From the NCBI RefSeq assembly GCF_054482595.1, contig NZ_CM137008.1: DNA of 64,000 nt; one strand, given 5' to 3'. Below the pieces are notes generated by a model that saw nothing but the letters and a program-made list of their open reading frames with translations, was not told the origin of the DNA and ran no database searches. Positions within the stretch are counted from its first letter, which is position 1, and each line of letters starts with the position of its first letter. The position numbers were made by a program, and so were the translations under genes. Positions 7,180 through 47,239 of the stretch are shown in pieces.

Positions 7180-7584
7180 TTATTGACCGAGCGTAAGGGT
7201 TTTCAGCATCATGCTTTTCACCGTGTTGAGCACTTCAACATTGGCCTGATAGCTGCGTGACGCCGACATGGTGTTAACCATCTCTCCGACAACATCAACG
7301 TTCGGCATTTTTACGTAGCCCTTTGCATCCGCCAGCGGATTACCCGGTTCATAAACCAGTTTGTCCGGGGCCTGACTTTCTATAACATCGGCAACCTTTA
7401 CGCCGCCTGTCGCAGCACCTGGTGCAGCGTTAACCTGGAATACCACCTGTTTTGCCCGATATGGCTGTCCATCGGGACCGGTCACGCTATCAGCATTCGC
7501 CAGATTACTGGCCGCCACGTTCAGGCGCTGGGACTGGGCAGTTAACGCCGATCCGGCGATATCAAAAATATTCAGCAGTGCCAT
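7180..7584 (-). CDS. flgC: Flagellar proximal rod protein FlgC (134 aa)
   Basis: ORF translation [33 protein letters not shown]. Confidence 0.96.
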
Positions 7585-8158: not shown

Positions 8159-8818
8159 ATGCTGACAATAAAACGTAGCGTGGCGATCATCGCGATACTG
8201 TTCAGTCCGTTAAGTGCGGCGAGCAATCTCACATCGCAATTGCAAACCTTTTTTAGCTCCCAGCTCGCAGGGATAAGTGATGAGGTTCGTGTTTCTATTC
8301 GTACAGCGCCCAATCTACTACCGCCGTGCGAGCAGCCATTGCTTTCGATGAGCAATAATTCCCGCTTGTGGGGCAATGTGAATGTGTTGGCACGCTGCGG
8401 TAACGACAAACGATATTTACAGGTTAATGTGCAGGCCACAGGAAATTATGTGGTTGCCGCGATGCCCATTGTGCGAGGAGGAAAGCTGGGAGCTGGCAAT
8501 GTCAAACTGAAACGCGGACGGCTGGATACCCTGCCGCCGCGTACGGTGCTGGATATCAATCAACTTGTTGATGCCGTTAGCCTGCGCGATCTATCACCCG
8601 ATCAACCTATCCAGTTAACCCAGTTTCGCCAGGCATGGCGGGTAAAAGCGGGACAACGCGTCAACGTGATCGCCAGCGGTGATGGGTTTAGCGCCAACGC
8701 AGAAGGTCAGGCGCTGAACAATGCAGCCGTCGCACAGAATGCGCGGGTGCGCATGGTATCTGGACAGGTAGTCAGCGGCGTTGTTGATGCAGATGGGAAT
8801 ATTCTTATAAACCTGTAA
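8159..8818 (+). CDS. flgA: Flagellar P-ring formation chaperone FlgA (219 aa)
   Basis: ORF translation MLTIKRSVAIIAILFSPLSAASNLTSQ; signal peptide. Confidence 0.95.
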   Translation: MLTIKRSVAIIAILFSPLSAASNLTSQLQTFFSSQLAGISDEVRVSIRTAPNLLPPCEQPLLSMSNNSRLWGNVNVLARCGNDKRYLQVNVQATGNYVVAAMPIVRGGKLGAGNVKLKRGRLDTLPPRTVLDINQLVDAVSLRDLSPDQPIQLTQFRQAWRVKAGQRVNVIASGDGFSANAEGQALNNAAVAQNARVRMVSGQVVSGVVDADGNILINL

Positions 8819-11292: not shown

Positions 11293-12216
11293 TTATTCAC
11301 TCATCGCATCGCGCCAGATCTTGTCAACGATACGTTGCGCCAGCACGGCCTGTTCGCCGGCGGTTTGCGGAACTGTCTGATTTTGCACACATTCAATGAA
11401 GTGCCGCGCACAGCCGACAAATCCACGTTGCTCAAGCGTGCTCTGCCAACCAGGAATCGGTTTATTCACTACACCCTGCCCACGCTCCTCACGCCATTCG
11501 CGCATTTCCGTAATGTCGATGAGCGCACCGTCAGTCACGGCCTGCACGGTTTCACGCTGACTTCCGGCACGGCGATGCATACAGGTGGTGATCTGCAAAG
11601 GACCGGCCGAAAAATGGTGCTCGGCAAACAGCATTTCGCCAGCGTCGTTAGTCAGTAGCGTACCGCCATCCAGAGAGGCTTTGCCGCCCGACAACCACAG
11701 CGCGGTATCCACCACATGCAGATAATCATCCAGCAACGTGAAATAAAGATCGTGTGGCCCGACGCTATTGCTACGATGTTTATCCATTCTTAGCGAGGCT
11801 GCGGTGGCGAGTTGCGTTTTTAACTCACCGTAGAGTGGTGCGAAACGACGGTTAAAACCGACCATCAACGTCAGTTTTTTCCGCGCCGCCAGTTCCACCA
11901 GCCGTTCAGCATCGCGCAGATTTTCTGCCAGCGGTTTATCGACACAGACATGTACCCCCGCATTGAGTAACGTACTGACCACGTCAAAGTGACTGGCGGT
12001 GCTGGAATGTACAAAAACCGCATCGCAACTGGCGGCAAGGCTGGATAACGAATCGGCATAAGGAATGCGCCAGCTTTCACAAATTGGCAGGGCTTTCGCG
12101 CGCGTAGGCGACCAGGCTCCTTGTAACGTCCAGTCAGACGCTGCCGCCAGCACCGGTAACCACGCTTTTTGCGCAATGCCGCCTAATCCCACTACGCCGA
12201 TACGTAATTTTTTCAC
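11293..12216 (-). CDS. yceM: Putative NAD-dependent oxidoreductase YceM (MviM), 307 aa
   Basis: Translation (M)KKLRIGVVGLGGIAQKAWLP from GTG at 12216 preceded by GGGAGA Shine-Dalgarno; Rossmann GxGxxA motif. Confidence 0.9.
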   Translation of the reverse strand: MKKLRIGVVGLGGIAQKAWLPVLAAASDWTLQGAWSPTRAKALPICESWRIPYADSLSSLAASCDAVFVHSSTASHFDVVSTLLNAGVHVCVDKPLAENLRDAERLVELAARKKLTLMVGFNRRFAPLYGELKTQLATAASLRMDKHRSNSVGPHDLYFTLLDDYLHVVDTALWLSGGKASLDGGTLLTNDAGEMLFAEHHFSAGPLQITTCMHRRAGSQRETVQAVTDGALIDITEMREWREERGQGVVNKPIPGWQSTLEQRGFVGCARHFIECVQNQTVPQTAGEQAVLAQRIVDKIWRDAMSE

Positions 12217-12217
12217 T

Positions 12218-13460
<1,243 letters not shown>

Positions 13461-41372: not shown

Positions 41373-41460
41373 GGTGAGGTGTCCGAGTGGCTGAAGGAGC
41401 ACGCCTGGAAAGTGTGTATACGGCAACGTATCGGGGGTTCGAATCCCCCCCTCACCGCCA
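41373..41460 (+). tRNA. serX: tRNA-Ser (anticodon GGA), serX-type, 88 nt with encoded CCA
   Basis: GGTGAGGTGTCCGAGTGGCTGAAGGAGCACGCCTGGAAAGTGTGTATACGGCAACGTATCGGGGGTTCGAATCCCCCCCTCACCGCCA: long variable arm, GGA anticodon, TPsiC GGTTCGAATCC. Confidence 0.97.
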
Positions 41461-41466
41461 GATTAT

Positions 41467-41499
41467 AAGCGCATGTTATTGTTTAACATGCGCTTTTTT
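41467..41499 (+). terminator. Rho-independent terminator of serX
   Basis: AAGCGCATGTTA-ttgtt-TAACATGCGCTT followed by TTTTA. Confidence 0.75.
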
Positions 41500-41609
41500 A
41501 TTTATCCTTCCGGACAGTATGCCATCGGGTATGCCATCTGAAACCGGTTTATATGCCCCGCGATCATATCTTATCGGACAATTTCCGATCTTTGAGCATA
41601 CTGGCAAAG

Positions 41610-42452
41610 CTATACTGCCAGCATGTCAGGATAGTGTTTTGCGATAATATCATTCAGTCTGTCAACCAGTTCTGGTTTCCTGAACGTGATGTGTGCGGAG
41701 CCCTTCTTAAAGTATCTGATGCTGAACATCTCATCTTCATAGTCCTCTTTACCCTGAACAGACTGGATGTGGTCATCCAGACGAAGGGTGATGTTTTCCC
41801 GGTTGTCGGGGATCGGTTTGCCGCTGAACAGGTGCAGCATTCTTTCCAGGTCGGCAAGTCGATCTACCTGGTGCCCGGTGATAAGATGAAATCCCCACCG
41901 GTCCCATCTCACCAGATTGTTGACGATAATTTTACTGCCAAATTTACAGGGGCAATTAGTTTTGTAATTCCAGCTCAATCCCCTGAAGACGTTGATCACC
42001 CCTCGCTCAAACACTTCATCTTTGTTCTGGTGCAGTTGTTCAAATGTGCTCAGAATGTTCGCTTCACTGACTTCCGGAAAATTATCATACTCCAGTGACC
42101 GGTACCATGTATCACGGGCCTGTGCATCCATTAAGGAAAGCATCCCTGAACGTTGCATCAGGTCACGCCAGATTTCTCGGTCAAGATTCCGGGTAATGGC
42201 TTTCATTGCTGTTTCGGGTTTCTCCATCAGCCAGCAACCGCAGCGAAAATCCTGTTTCATGGCCCAGTCCGGGGCGGTTTTACCTCCAATACTTTCTGTC
42301 ATTGATGAGATTTCAGCCAGTTGCCGGATAAGTGTGTCGATTTGCAGCAGTGTACTCTTTCGTACAGCCAGAATGTGGCTGACTGAGGTTGAGCAGATAA
42401 CGTCCGTATGCCCGTTGACCACTTCCGGATGGGAGAGTGTGATTGCAGACAT
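41610..42452 (-). CDS. Island-encoded hypothetical protein (280 aa), resembles proteins found downstream of cbtA-family toxin genes in CP4-type elements
   Basis: Intact ORF MSAITLSHPEVVNGHTDVICSTSVSHILAVRK...; same strand and tight spacing as the TA module; family (DUF4942-like?) is from memory and not verified. Confidence 0.6.
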   Translation of the reverse strand: MSAITLSHPEVVNGHTDVICSTSVSHILAVRKSTLLQIDTLIRQLAEISSMTESIGGKTAPDWAMKQDFRCGCWLMEKPETAMKAITRNLDREIWRDLMQRSGMLSLMDAQARDTWYRSLEYDNFPEVSEANILSTFEQLHQNKDEVFERGVINVFRGLSWNYKTNCPCKFGSKIIVNNLVRWDRWGFHLITGHQVDRLADLERMLHLFSGKPIPDNRENITLRLDDHIQSVQGKEDYEDEMFSIRYFKKGSAHITFRKPELVDRLNDIIAKHYPDMLAV

Positions 42453-42536
42453 AATTGATATTCCTTTTGGTTTATAAACGAAAACGCCAGCCGTATTCAG
42501 GCTGGCGTCAGTGGAATGAAGTCTGGTGAGTAAGAC

Positions 42537-42734
42537 TCACCTGTTCTGTTGCAGAAGCTGCTGTTGGCGCAGGGTACGGATATCTTCCCTGGCCTGTTCA
42601 ATGCAGGGCAGCAGTGCTGCTGAATCCGTTTTATCCTCATCGTTGTCGAAGATAATCCCTGATTCGCAGTCAATATTGTCCTGCAGCCACGCAATCAGAA
42701 TATCCAGCGCCGTTTCTGTGGTTAATGATTTCAT
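42537..42734 (-). CDS. Small island-encoded hypothetical protein (65 aa)
   Basis: ORF MKSLTTETALDILIAWLQDNIDCESGIIFDNDEDKTD; acidic; co-oriented with neighbours. Confidence 0.45.
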   Translation of the reverse strand: MKSLTTETALDILIAWLQDNIDCESGIIFDNDEDKTDSAALLPCIEQAREDIRTLRQQQLLQQNR

Positions 42735-42750
42735 GTTGTGAATTTACGGG

Positions 42751-43239
42751 TTACCAGTCGAAAGTGGGGAACCCCGGCAGACATTCTGCGCCGGCGTCCA
42801 GATGAATGAGACTGACGCCATAACGCCGGGTGAGAGTGACGACCAGACGACGGAACGTTCTTGACAGGCCCAGGCGTTTAAGCCGCAGAACCGGGTACGA
42901 CCATGCATCGGTACGTAACAGATAGCCGCTGCCTGTAAAATGAATCCATTCTGTTTCGCCGTCGTCATTAGTCTGGTGTGACAGCGAGTACAGCCAGGCG
43001 TTGTCCGTTTCCGTGATATGTGCGGTACTGCAACGTATGCCGGTAAGGGTTGTTAACGGTGGTGGTGTACTGGTTGACTGCTGGTCGGATTTATCGACCA
43101 CGCGGAGTGAATAACCGTTTTCAGAGACCTTGTTAATCAGTTCAGCGAGATTAACACCATCGACGTCAACGACAATGCGCCCCATGTTCAGCGCCTGCAT
43201 GTTAATGCTGTCGGCTTCCGGCGTCAGGGAAAGGTTCAT
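42751..43239 (-). CDS. Island-encoded hypothetical protein (162 aa), translationally coupled to the toxin gene
   Basis: ATG 43239 overlaps toxin stop (ATGA, plus 43236-43239); [31 protein letters not shown]... Confidence 0.55.
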
Positions 43240-43619
43240 TGTTTCGCCTCCTCCGGATGCTTGCCCAGGGTAATGTTATTTACCATTCTGTAATTGTCCC
43301 GGGTCATCAGGCCGGTCGCCCTGCGAGCCCGGAGAATATCAATGCTGTTGATTAACTGAGACGACGGGGCTCCTGCGCTGAATCCCGGCTGGTCAGTTCG
43401 TACCAGCACGTATTTTTCAACGAGAAAGTTCACCGCGTCACACAGTGAAATCCCTGCCTCAATATGCTGCTCAATCACACGTTCATCAGCGAACGGTGTG
43501 TCATTCAACGTAAGGCCATAGTGCTGGTCCAGCAGTCGGGTGAGCAGTGTCTGCCAGATTTCAACCGGAGACGGGCAGCGCGATGCCGCCCGTACGTGTG
43601 TGTCGGGTAATGTTTTCAT
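43236..43619 (-). CDS. cbtA: Type IV toxin-antitoxin toxin, CbtA/YeeV/YkfI/YpjF family (127 aa)
   Basis: Translation from ATG 43619 [73 protein letters not shown] track extended 53 codons upstream. Confidence 0.85.
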
Positions 43620-43695
43620 ACTGAAGGTTTTCCTGATATGCAGAGATGAAAAATGGAAAAGTGGCGTGGTGAAAGCACCAGGCCGGAGCAGAAGG

Positions 43696-44076
43696 CTATT
43701 CCGGAGGGTTACTTTCCGTTTCGGTCGCAGGATAAACAGCCAGATAAACGTAACCACAGGAGCCGAGGGTGTCGGCATCGCAGGTCAGCCCTTTCGCATA
43801 CAGCGTGACGGTATGCTGATGCCGGGGATTCAGTTCACCGCTGGTGAGCATGAGTTCCAGTTGTTTCATCAGCAGTGGAAAAGCCTGGTCCAGATGGTAT
43901 GCATCCGCATTGCTGAACCGGCCTCTGATACCGGCGCGGTCTGCAAGGTAATGCAACCGGTTACCCTCCTGCACCAGACGTGCCCCGAAACAGGGCGTCA
44001 CGATGCAGGGCAGCCCCCACCAGGGGCGGTCTTTGTTGTCGTCGGGAAGCGTTGTCCCGGGGAGTGTGTCTGACAC
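43696..44076 (-). CDS. cbeA: Type IV toxin-antitoxin antitoxin, CbeA/YeeU/YfjZ/YafW family (126 aa)
   Basis: GTG start 44076 preceded by GAGGA; translation (M)[51 protein letters not shown]. Confidence 0.85.
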
Positions 44077-44086
44077 GATAAAATCC

Positions 44087-44770
44087 TCACAGAAAATCGG
44101 TGAATGATAGTTTAACGATGACGGGGCAGCCGGCGCGCAGACCGGCTTCGGTGAAGGTATATTCGTTGATGAGAAGGGCCTCATCCACAGCGGCGTCTGA
44201 GGTCAGCCAGTCGTACTCGTTTTCCAGTTGACGGTACAACCAGAAGGCCAGGTCGCGCAGGGCTTCGCTGACTGCGGCTTCCGCATCGGTTGTCATAGCC
44301 TGACCAGTCGGACTGTTCCGGGTGACGGTGATATCCATGCAGTACGGATGGCAGTAACGTCCCCGGTGGTGGATTTCAGCCTGCAGTTGCCAGAAGTTAC
44401 GCTTCTGCACCGCCTGCAGGGCATCCGCGATACGATGAAGCTCACGGTCCTGCGGGGCATACACCCCGACTCTCCTGGCTGTTGCTGACTGCCAGTGCCA
44501 GCGTCCTTCAAAACAGGCTCCGTCCCCCTGGCTGCAGAATCCGCTGAACCAGATGCACGGCTCTTCCATAAACCTGCCGTTGCTGAGCCGGATAACACGC
44601 TGGCGGAGGTCAATCCCGAAAATGCCACAGACCTCCCTGAAGTCCCCATACACGTTTTCATACCAGTTGCTGTCAGCATGATGCTGACGGTACCAGTCGC
44701 GGGCTTTTTCCTGTGCGGTGGAGGATAGCTCATTCAGTGTATACACAGTGGTGGTGATAATTCTGCTCAT
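44087..44770 (-). CDS. Hypothetical protein (227 aa) between DUF987 and antitoxin genes; not recognised as a canonical CP4 gene
   Basis: ORF MSRIITTTVYTLNELSSTAQEKARDWYRQHHADSNWYEN...; fills the gap exactly; its TGA stop (44087-44089) overlaps the antitoxin Shine-Dalgarno GTGAGGA. Confidence 0.6.
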   Translation of the reverse strand: MSRIITTTVYTLNELSSTAQEKARDWYRQHHADSNWYENVYGDFREVCGIFGIDLRQRVIRLSNGRFMEEPCIWFSGFCSQGDGACFEGRWHWQSATARRVGVYAPQDRELHRIADALQAVQKRNFWQLQAEIHHRGRYCHPYCMDITVTRNSPTGQAMTTDAEAAVSEALRDLAFWLYRQLENEYDWLTSDAAVDEALLINEYTFTEAGLRAGCPVIVKLSFTDFL

Positions 44771-46960: not shown

Positions 46961-47239
46961 AATTTGCTCCTTATGAATGAGTTAGCGGTATAAATGAAAA
47001 AGCCGCGTCTCCCGGAGAAGACACGGCCTGACAGATGAAATGAATGACGTTTATTGTCTGAGAAGCCCTTCACTGGCGAGCTGCGTATTTTTATGGAAGG
47101 AGATCACCCAATAACCCCATCGGGATCGGGTAATAACCGGCCAGACTGTGATCGATTCAGATGCCATTTGGCAGCAAAAGAGCCTTCGGCAATAAACGTG
47201 ATGTACAACCCGGCATATCTGTTACTCCCTGAAAGTAAA

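Follow-up and report, generated by a model that had tools for sequence, protein, structure and literature searches.

Three conserved DUF-family genes between a cbtA toxin gene and a tRNA-Ser gene: possible distal end of a leading-region-like array on a genomic island

The three genes and their families

The window analysed here, a stretch of 64,000 nucleotides (nt) from contig NZ_CM137008.1 (RefSeq assembly GCF_054482595.1), carries three minus-strand open reading frames (ORFs), at 43239..42751, 42734..42537 and 42452..41610, between an intact cbeA/cbtA toxin-antitoxin (TA) pair, which lies directly upstream of them, and the tRNA-Ser(GGA) gene at which a genomic island is integrated. A preliminary description, made from the sequence alone, had placed the three ORFs at these positions and left them uncharacterised, and had noted that the first overlaps the toxin stop codon, that the second encodes an acidic protein and that the third ends close to the tRNA (149 nt from it by our count). 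All of this was borne out, as was its suspicion that the 280-amino acid (aa) protein is a member of a DUF family whose genes are regularly annotated alongside those of cbtA-like toxins; the family is DUF4942. The three ORFs are real genes of families that are already catalogued and annotated but uncharacterised, and we consider below whether they represent the end of an array resembling the leading region of conjugative plasmids. The features of the locus, with Shine-Dalgarno abbreviated as SD, are as follows.

43236..43619, minus strand: cbtA-family toxin gene, 127 aa, with ATG at 43619 and TGA at 43238-43236 (Pfam CbtA_toxin PF06755, 199 bits)
43236..43239, minus strand: ATGA start/stop overlap of cbtA and the DUF5983 gene (read from the sequence)
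43247..43251, minus strand: GGAGG SD-like motif, within the coding region of cbtA and 7 nt upstream of the ATG of DUF5983
42751..43239, minus strand: DUF5983 gene, 162 aa, YeeW/Aec77 family (Pfam PF25638 and PF19419)
42537..42734, minus strand: gene for the 65-aa acidic protein, DUF957 (PGAP) or Aec78, starting 16 nt after the DUF5983 stop
42474..42509, minus strand: intrinsic-terminator-like hairpin with T-rich tail, between DUF957 and DUF4942 (terminator scan)
42462..42466, minus strand: AAGGA SD-like motif, about 9 nt upstream of the DUF4942 start codon (read from the sequence)
41610..42452, minus strand: DUF4942 (YdiA) gene, 280 aa (Pfam PF13708, 232.9 bits)
41461..41609, no strand assigned: spacer of 149 nt between the tRNA and DUF4942, the island edge, with a hairpin at 41467-41495 and a tandem repeat at 41517-41538
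41373..41460, plus strand: tRNA-Ser(GGA), the integration site (ARAGORN, Rfam and the annotation of an identical record)

The genes of the array all point the same way, and the array finishes at the island edge; island-free E. coli genomes align to the query only as far as about 41468. The window is E. coli DNA, and a block of 2.9 kb is 100% identical in E. coli CFSAN061769, where the flanking genes run csgG-ycdZ-ycdY-ycdX-ghrA-tRNA-Ser. The ghrA/ycdX/csgG surroundings are the serX context, so that the tRNA-Ser(GGA) gene is serX; it was the sole match in an Rfam search. PGAP describes a toxin gene of identical sequence as encoding a CbtA-family toxin of a TA system, and a listed ORF of 180 aa proved to be a 5' over-extension of cbtA (43620-43778, minus strand), since both PGAP and Pfam favour the ATG at 43619.

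The 162-aa protein is composed of two DUF5983 domains, an N-domain at about residues 4-59 (PF25638, 106.4 bits) and a C-domain at residues 69-162 (PF19419, 79.2 bits; the cut-off is 27 for each). The 280-aa protein covers the DUF4942 profile from position 1 to 190 of 190, its score of 232.9 bits comparing with a cut-off of 25; the profile searches proposed in the preliminary description thus found the DUF5983 and DUF4942 families far above their gathering thresholds. The 65-aa protein has an isoelectric point of 4.16, with 13 aspartate and glutamate residues against 6 lysine and arginine residues, and matches no family in current Pfam-A, the Pfam column being blank for all 120 listed homologues. 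On a 100% identical record PGAP names the three products a DUF5983 family protein, a DUF957 domain-containing protein (WP_000839253.1) and a DUF4942 domain-containing protein, and alternative source names are Aec77, Aec78 and Aec79. PADLOC and NCBIfam searches gave no usable match for the three proteins, and neither sequence nor profile searches of the PDB returned anything significant for them; a match to Internalin-J (E = 0.004) was discarded as a leucine-rich-repeat artefact.

In an alignment of DUF5983 proteins, residues C70, S71, H74, D79 and W98 of the C-domain are invariant, as is its C-terminal T-x-x-W. A glyoxalase-like fold has been claimed for this domain (10.1101/2024.01.30.577995); AlphaFold2, given no alignment, produced a model of DUF5983 that was too poor to use, with a predicted local distance difference test score (pLDDT) of 34. 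In one homologue, P0270 (214 aa), part of the C-domain is duplicated internally (alignment A2). Judged by its position beside DUF5983, the 65-aa ORF probably corresponds to the AntiFam sequence family ANF00264: in a 2026 preprint (10.64898/2026.06.09.728211) this family is described just downstream of DUF5983, which fits DUF957 here, and is argued to be real. AntiFam lists ANF00264 as spurious, whereas the selection analysis presented below identifies the 65-aa ORF at this locus as a real coding gene.

Expression signals, selection and distribution

For comparison we used about 20 homologous loci, some on E. coli islands inserted at other sites and others from E. albertii, Serratia, Klebsiella and metagenome contigs. 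At the junction in the window, the toxin frame ends in GAG GCG AAA CAA TGA and the next frame begins with ATG AAC CTT, the ATG at 43239-43237 lying over the TGA at 43238-43236. The overlap between cbtA and DUF5983, as ATGA or as an ATGATGA variant, is kept at all 18 homologous junctions, Serratia and Klebsiella included, and at every one of the 18 an SD-like motif (GGAGG, GGGGG, GGAGA, AAGGA or GAGG) lies within the last codons of the toxin gene. The tight coupling to the toxin gene that the preliminary description had pointed out therefore holds well beyond this locus, and its proposal to look for conservation of the overlap across homologous islands gave a uniform answer. The overlap and the embedded motif place DUF5983 on the same message as cbtA, and it is very probably translated by coupling or re-initiation. 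In the minimum-free-energy fold, the SD-like stretch pairs with downstream sequence, though the signal is weak (z = -2.1). DUF957 follows closely, its start lying 11, 16, 17 or 19 nt past the DUF5983 stop in the 13 loci where both genes are full-length.

DUF4942 is set apart from the two genes before it by a hairpin with a 10-bp stem, 7 pairs of which are G-C (-21.4 kcal/mol, z = -5.2), and this hairpin is kept in all loci compared, including those of Serratia and Klebsiella that have no DUF957. Its T-rich tail is followed, after about 20 nt, by the AAGGA motif and the DUF4942 start; across loci the motif is kept as AAAGGAA or AAGGGAA, and no conserved sigma-70-like promoter fits between the hairpin and the start codon. 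Because the hairpin precedes the gene, DUF4942 would probably be expressed by read-through past it, at a lower level. A common layout, consisting of a GC-rich hairpin, TTTC(A/G)TTTAT, an SD-like motif and a start codon within about 45 nt, is found upstream of both DUF932 (46990-47035, minus strand) and DUF4942 (42474-42509, minus strand). The sequence TTTYRTTTAT occurs four times in the window, against 0.9 copies expected, and three of the four follow directly after a hairpin. This layout could be a leaky terminator or a common regulatory element.

The ratio of nonsynonymous to synonymous substitution rates (dN/dS) was calculated for each gene by the Nei-Gojobori method, in the annotated frame and in the two shifted frames. 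In the annotated frame it was 0.20 for DUF5983 (1.33 and 1.57 when shifted), 0.12 for DUF957 (1.26 and 2.23), 0.13 for DUF4942 (1.87 and 1.55) and 0.16 for cbtA (1.41 and 1.24). With in-frame values of 0.12-0.20, all three genes are therefore protein-coding and under purifying selection, the 65-aa ORF included. Gene lengths are kept in most loci (162-163, 65 and 280-282 aa), and the same holds for nearly all of the top DUF5983 protein clusters. A scan of genome contigs with CbtA yielded only 14 loci, and the cross-species statistics are accordingly thin.

Of 5426 complete E. coli genomes, 3127 carry the block with at least 80% of the query covered. Counted gene by gene over the same genomes, cbtA occurs at 12495 places in 4875 genomes, DUF5983 at 11848 places in 4758, DUF4942 at 8388 places in 4076 and DUF957 at 7181 places in 3784. 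The arrays are mostly intact across loci, and decayed alleles are common. In K-12, where the CbtA/CbeA, YkfI/YafW and YpjF/YfjZ pairs have been characterised, the CP4-44 element has kept cbeA and cbtA, while yeeW is a stub of 64 aa, DUF957 is a fragment and DUF4942 is missing. The 162-aa gene of the window holds the same position after cbtA as yeeW, with the same 4-nt overlap, but it encodes the full two-domain form whereas the K-12 stub retains the N-domain only. Further E. coli islands have a full-length cbtA beside a truncated DUF5983 (L020, L033 and L034 among them) or a truncated DUF4942, and on one island cbeA is interrupted by an internal stop, the genes downstream of it being intact. 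Pairs of cbtA and cbeA with about 65% identity and none of the three genes occur in Serratia sp. H1w, Xenorhabdus, Franconibacter, Brenneria and Entomohabitans. As K-12 and other islands carry truncated versions and the more distant cbtA/cbeA loci lack the genes altogether, the toxin-antitoxin pair does not need them.

Loci of Serratia (L005 2102-2232) and Klebsiella (L012 6863-6995) have DUF5983 and DUF4942 but no DUF957, with about 126 nt of non-coding sequence ending in the common hairpin. Homologues of DUF957 were found only in E. coli and its close relatives (373 clusters), and for this reason DUF957 may have been inserted into the array at a late stage.

Plasmid relatives and the nature of the array

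Homologues of DUF4942 with 33-38% identity are present on 4382 plasmid records, 4000 of which are conjugative. On an IncI-gamma/K1 plasmid about 650 bp separate the gene from nikA, and it occupies that end of a co-directional leading region with ardA and psiA which is nearest the transfer origin (oriT), and on a pOXA-48-like IncL/M plasmid it stands amid JAB, antirestriction and ssb genes, all of them directed toward mobA/traI. As in the window, the plasmid DUF4942 proteins are about 280 aa long with a full-length domain, and their gene is the 3'-most of a co-directional array with antirestriction and JAB/RadC genes; the differences are the low sequence identity and the chromosomal setting of the window gene, which borders an island integrated at a tRNA gene, in which neither an oriT nor a relaxase was identified. 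The DUF5983 C-domain occurs by itself on about 150 plasmid records. On an Enterobacter MOBP plasmid its gene is the last of the leading region before mobA, and on a Pantoea MPF_G plasmid it is coupled to DUF1281 by a 4-nt overlap and is followed by methylase, UvrD helicase and TraI genes. Unlike the two-domain protein of the window, the plasmid members have only the C-domain and do not lie beside cbtA. DUF4942 and DUF5983 alike have plasmid homologues close to oriT, within the leading region. DUF1281 followed by an ORF of about 103 aa with a 4-nt overlap is found on the Pantoea plasmid (L028 6045-7291) and also on the IncI-gamma/K1 plasmid (L026 1751-2961); the 103-aa ORF of the latter was considered as a possible DUF5983 and rejected, as it has no Pfam match and no BLAST similarity.

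The two families also appear, independently, in a published survey of leading regions. In Supplementary Table 1 of Samuel et al., 2024 (PMC11541004), DUF5983 and DUF4942 are among the 100 largest leading-region-enriched families, the relevant entries being families 24, 72 and 76, and both are on the strand coded 1. DUF5983/Aec77 is family 72, with a median position of 2, and the median position of the DUF4942 family is the first ORF from oriT; the table also lists DUF932/YubP-like and KlcA families, both of which are present in the array of the window. The leading-region anti-defence islands of that study and the window array have in common the DUF932/YubP-like, KlcA/ArdB, RadC/JAB, DUF5983 and DUF4942 families and a TA pair, and match in their one-strand orientation and dense packing. 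In contrast to these islands, no oriT, relaxase or single-stranded DNA (ssDNA) promoter was identified in the array described here. The same gene module is carried at the serX locus of O157:H7. The O157 TAI islands are located at serW and serX. A 2026 preprint (10.64898/2026.01.13.699239) describes the O157 TAI islands as mobilisable islands that carry an oriT only, and reports a candidate oriT for islands of the TAI type.

We propose, with a probability of roughly 0.55, that the three genes are the distal end of a leading-region-like establishment or anti-defence array on a mobilisable island. The array would be the island counterpart of the plasmid leading region, and the three proteins would function, following horizontal transfer, in establishment or anti-defence, outside the CbtA/CbeA mechanism. 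Because relatives of the first and third genes adjoin the transfer origin of conjugative plasmids, a role in establishing the island in a new host is more likely than a role in tuning the neighbouring toxin. In a more specific form, which we put forward only tentatively, the cbtA-coupled DUF5983-DUF957 genes and the hairpin-separated DUF4942 gene would make up a chromosomal 'first-in' oriT-proximal cassette, in which DUF4942 would be a headless, non-methylating DNA-recognition module descended from a phage and plasmid lineage of N6-adenine methyltransferases, for example an anti-restriction shield or decoy, and translation of the cassette would be linked to that of the toxin through the N-domain of DUF5983.

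Several observations weigh against an establishment array. The activity proposed for the three proteins is read from their genomic context, and PADLOC, as mentioned, offers no usable match for any of them. No oriT was found in the island. The 149-nt spacer was considered as a site for one and rejected, as its only matches in a plasmid collection are chromosomal records that had been mis-filed there and it matches no genuine plasmid. Similarity among islands at different sites stops about 15-20 nt inside the 3' end of DUF4942. No long hairpin of the Frpo kind was found upstream of the array; the idea of an ssDNA promoter hairpin upstream of DUF932 is unconvincing (z = -2.3). Regarding pESBL, some leading-region genes are not induced on entry, and the main text of the report on this plasmid names no DUF4942 gene among the induced operons. 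In the loci examined, the DUF5983 N-domain and DUF957 are seen solely downstream of cbtA, which would fit a toxin-linked role. Finally, most of the other island cargo in the strain of the window has been degraded by insertion sequence (IS) elements, and it is doubtful for this reason that the island is still mobile.

An alignment-based AlphaFold2 model of DUF4942 (pLDDT 90.7, predicted template modelling score 0.83) has a long helical N-terminal half and an alpha/beta C-terminal half, and the predicted fold found no match in the PDB, Rossmann-type folds included. The family comprises 2188 clusters at 50% identity and consists mostly of stand-alone proteins of about 270 aa; a minority of homologues, 460-468 aa long, bear in addition a class-I methyltransferase domain at the C-terminus, in which the motifs EPSAGxG and NPPFS are found. 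Close homologues of the window protein are named 'restriction methylase' or 'methyltransferase domain' in the sources, and the protein matches phrog_6263 (DNA methyltransferase); phage relatives of DUF4942 are annotated as methylases. That DUF4942 is itself an orphan DNA methyltransferase is nevertheless very improbable, given that the phrog_6263 match spans positions 83-284 of 548, a non-catalytic part, and that the methyltransferase domain of the fusions is an additional C-terminal segment of 170-200 aa. The 280-aa protein has no methyltransferase Pfam match and no motif IV of the form (D/N/S)PP(Y/F); it does not even contain a PP dipeptide, nor does a rough pattern for motif I match it. Since both methyltransferase motifs are missing, the name 'restriction methylase' is unjustified for it. 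Relative to the orphan N6-adenine DNA methyltransferases of phages and plasmids with an N-terminal DUF4942 (phrog_6263; 460-548 aa), to which it is 35-40% identical over about 200-260 aa, it ends at the domain boundary and has neither the S-adenosylmethionine-binding motif nor the NPPF catalytic motif. We therefore favour the view that DUF4942 would be a non-catalytic, probably DNA-recognising module, which in a minority of relatives stands N-terminal to an N6-adenine methyltransferase domain. Small plasmid genes for 'N-6 DNA methylase' near DUF5983 were considered as split partners of DUF4942 and dismissed, as they do not resemble the methyltransferase part of the fused proteins, and M.EcoGIX of pESBL is an unrelated beta-class DPPY enzyme. 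Distant and fused DUF4942 proteins were found on short contigs, one of which is a phage-like run of small ORFs.

The preliminary description had suggested that the 162-aa protein, being coupled to the toxin, might modulate the TA system. In this explanation DUF5983, possibly with DUF957, is a third CbtA/CbeA component, such as a co-translated modulator, a second antitoxin, a chaperone or a sensor. DUF5983 shares the transcript and the translation junction of the CbtA/CbeA (YeeV/YeeU) type IV system, the overlap and SD-like motif are present at all 18 junctions, and in E. coli the places occupied by DUF5983 amount to about 95% of those occupied by cbtA. The N-domain survives in several decayed alleles, K-12 yeeW for example, and its restriction, with DUF957, to sites downstream of cbtA is the chief reason for leaving this explanation some weight. 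A TA survey (PMC10790755) paired CbtA_toxin with DUF5983 in most sequence types, but by position, and this pairing is one of adjacency only. Moreover, the system is defined as one of two components, the co-occurrence of DUF5983 with the pair is not consistent, and the three genes are dispensable in K-12, where CP4-44, the only K-12 locus examined, has the yeeW stub. Full-length cbtA stands beside truncated DUF5983 in some islands, the gene is missing beside the pairs of about 65% identity in five other genera, and the C-domain is found on plasmids without cbtA, once coupled to DUF1281 instead. The suggested modulation thus has only adjacency in its favour, while an obligate link is contradicted by K-12, the decayed islands, the distant pairs and the plasmids, and we consider a third component unlikely.

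Two further explanations concern the integrity of the genes. The three ORFs might be decaying, non-functional remnants at the edge of a cryptic CP4-type element, which was the conclusion that the preliminary description would have drawn from islands with the ORFs disrupted or absent beside a conserved TA pair. Such islands do exist: truncated or missing alleles are frequent (K-12, L020, L021, L032, L033, L034), the copy number drops toward the island edge, from 12495 for cbtA to 8388 for DUF4942 and 7181 for DUF957, and the surrounding island in the strain of the window is full of IS elements. Where the genes are present, however, their in-frame dN/dS is comparable to that of cbtA, against values above 1.2 out of frame, their lengths are preserved in most loci and homologues are maintained on thousands of conjugative plasmids, all of which largely refutes decay and leaves it with little credit. 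Still less probable is that DUF5983 and the 65-aa ORF are one protein made by programmed ribosomal frameshifting. The preprint on ANF00264 (10.64898/2026.06.09.728211) proposes this and reports fused, split and separated predictions of DUF5983 and ANF00264 beside cbtA/cbeA, and the position of ANF00264 fits the 65-aa ORF. Yet in the 13 loci with both genes full-length the DUF5983 stop is intact, and the 65-aa ORF opens beyond it with an ATG of its own. The two frames are offset by +1 in some cases and by +2 in others, which a single conserved frameshift could not produce, and in the Serratia and Klebsiella loci DUF957 is missing although DUF5983 is full-length.

The three families are among the commonest genes of unknown function in E. 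coli, often with several copies per genome, and relatives of DUF4942 are typically the first gene beside oriT on thousands of conjugative resistance plasmids, those of the IncI and pOXA-48 types included. If the three proteins do serve in establishment or anti-defence, this would bear on how pathogenicity islands and resistance plasmids pass the defences of their recipients. If, on the other hand, DUF5983 were to touch CbtA, the textbook two-gene type IV TA system would gain a third player. Our analysis leaves current knowledge of these proteins unchanged and sharpens the choice of a decisive experiment.

Other features of the locus

The spacer between the tRNA and DUF4942 contains a terminator-like hairpin with a 12-bp stem and a T-rich tail (41467-41505, plus strand), which begins 7 nt past the 3' end of the tRNA. 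In this island-specific spacer, GTATGCCATC occurs twice in tandem, 2 nt apart (41517-41538, plus strand), and these copies could be candidate arm-type binding sites for an integrase.

Upstream of the TA pair, an ORF of 227 aa (44087-44770, minus strand) lies between DUF987 (yeeT-like) and cbeA, with gaps of 10 nt and 18 nt. It matches phrog_5162 (E = 9.5e-37) and has no Pfam, NCBIfam or usable PADLOC match. Its homologues are named 'antitoxin of toxin-antitoxin stability system' by PGAP; they are pseudogenes in two other islands and are missing from several more.

A lone gene for the M subunit of a type I restriction-modification system abuts an IS1 element in locus L001 (30342-32604, about 51641-53903 of the window), and farther along, the island is pieced together from fragments of IS1, IS3, IS5 and IS256 and from glycosyltransferase genes. 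The annotation of the stretch covered by L001 lists no integrase, relaxase, HsdR or HsdS gene. In uropathogenic E. coli 536 (L016 2570-4836), a site-specific integrase gene is found on the opposite strand 92 nt beyond the DUF4942 stop, which suggests either tandem islands or an integrase-proximal arrangement unlike that of the window.

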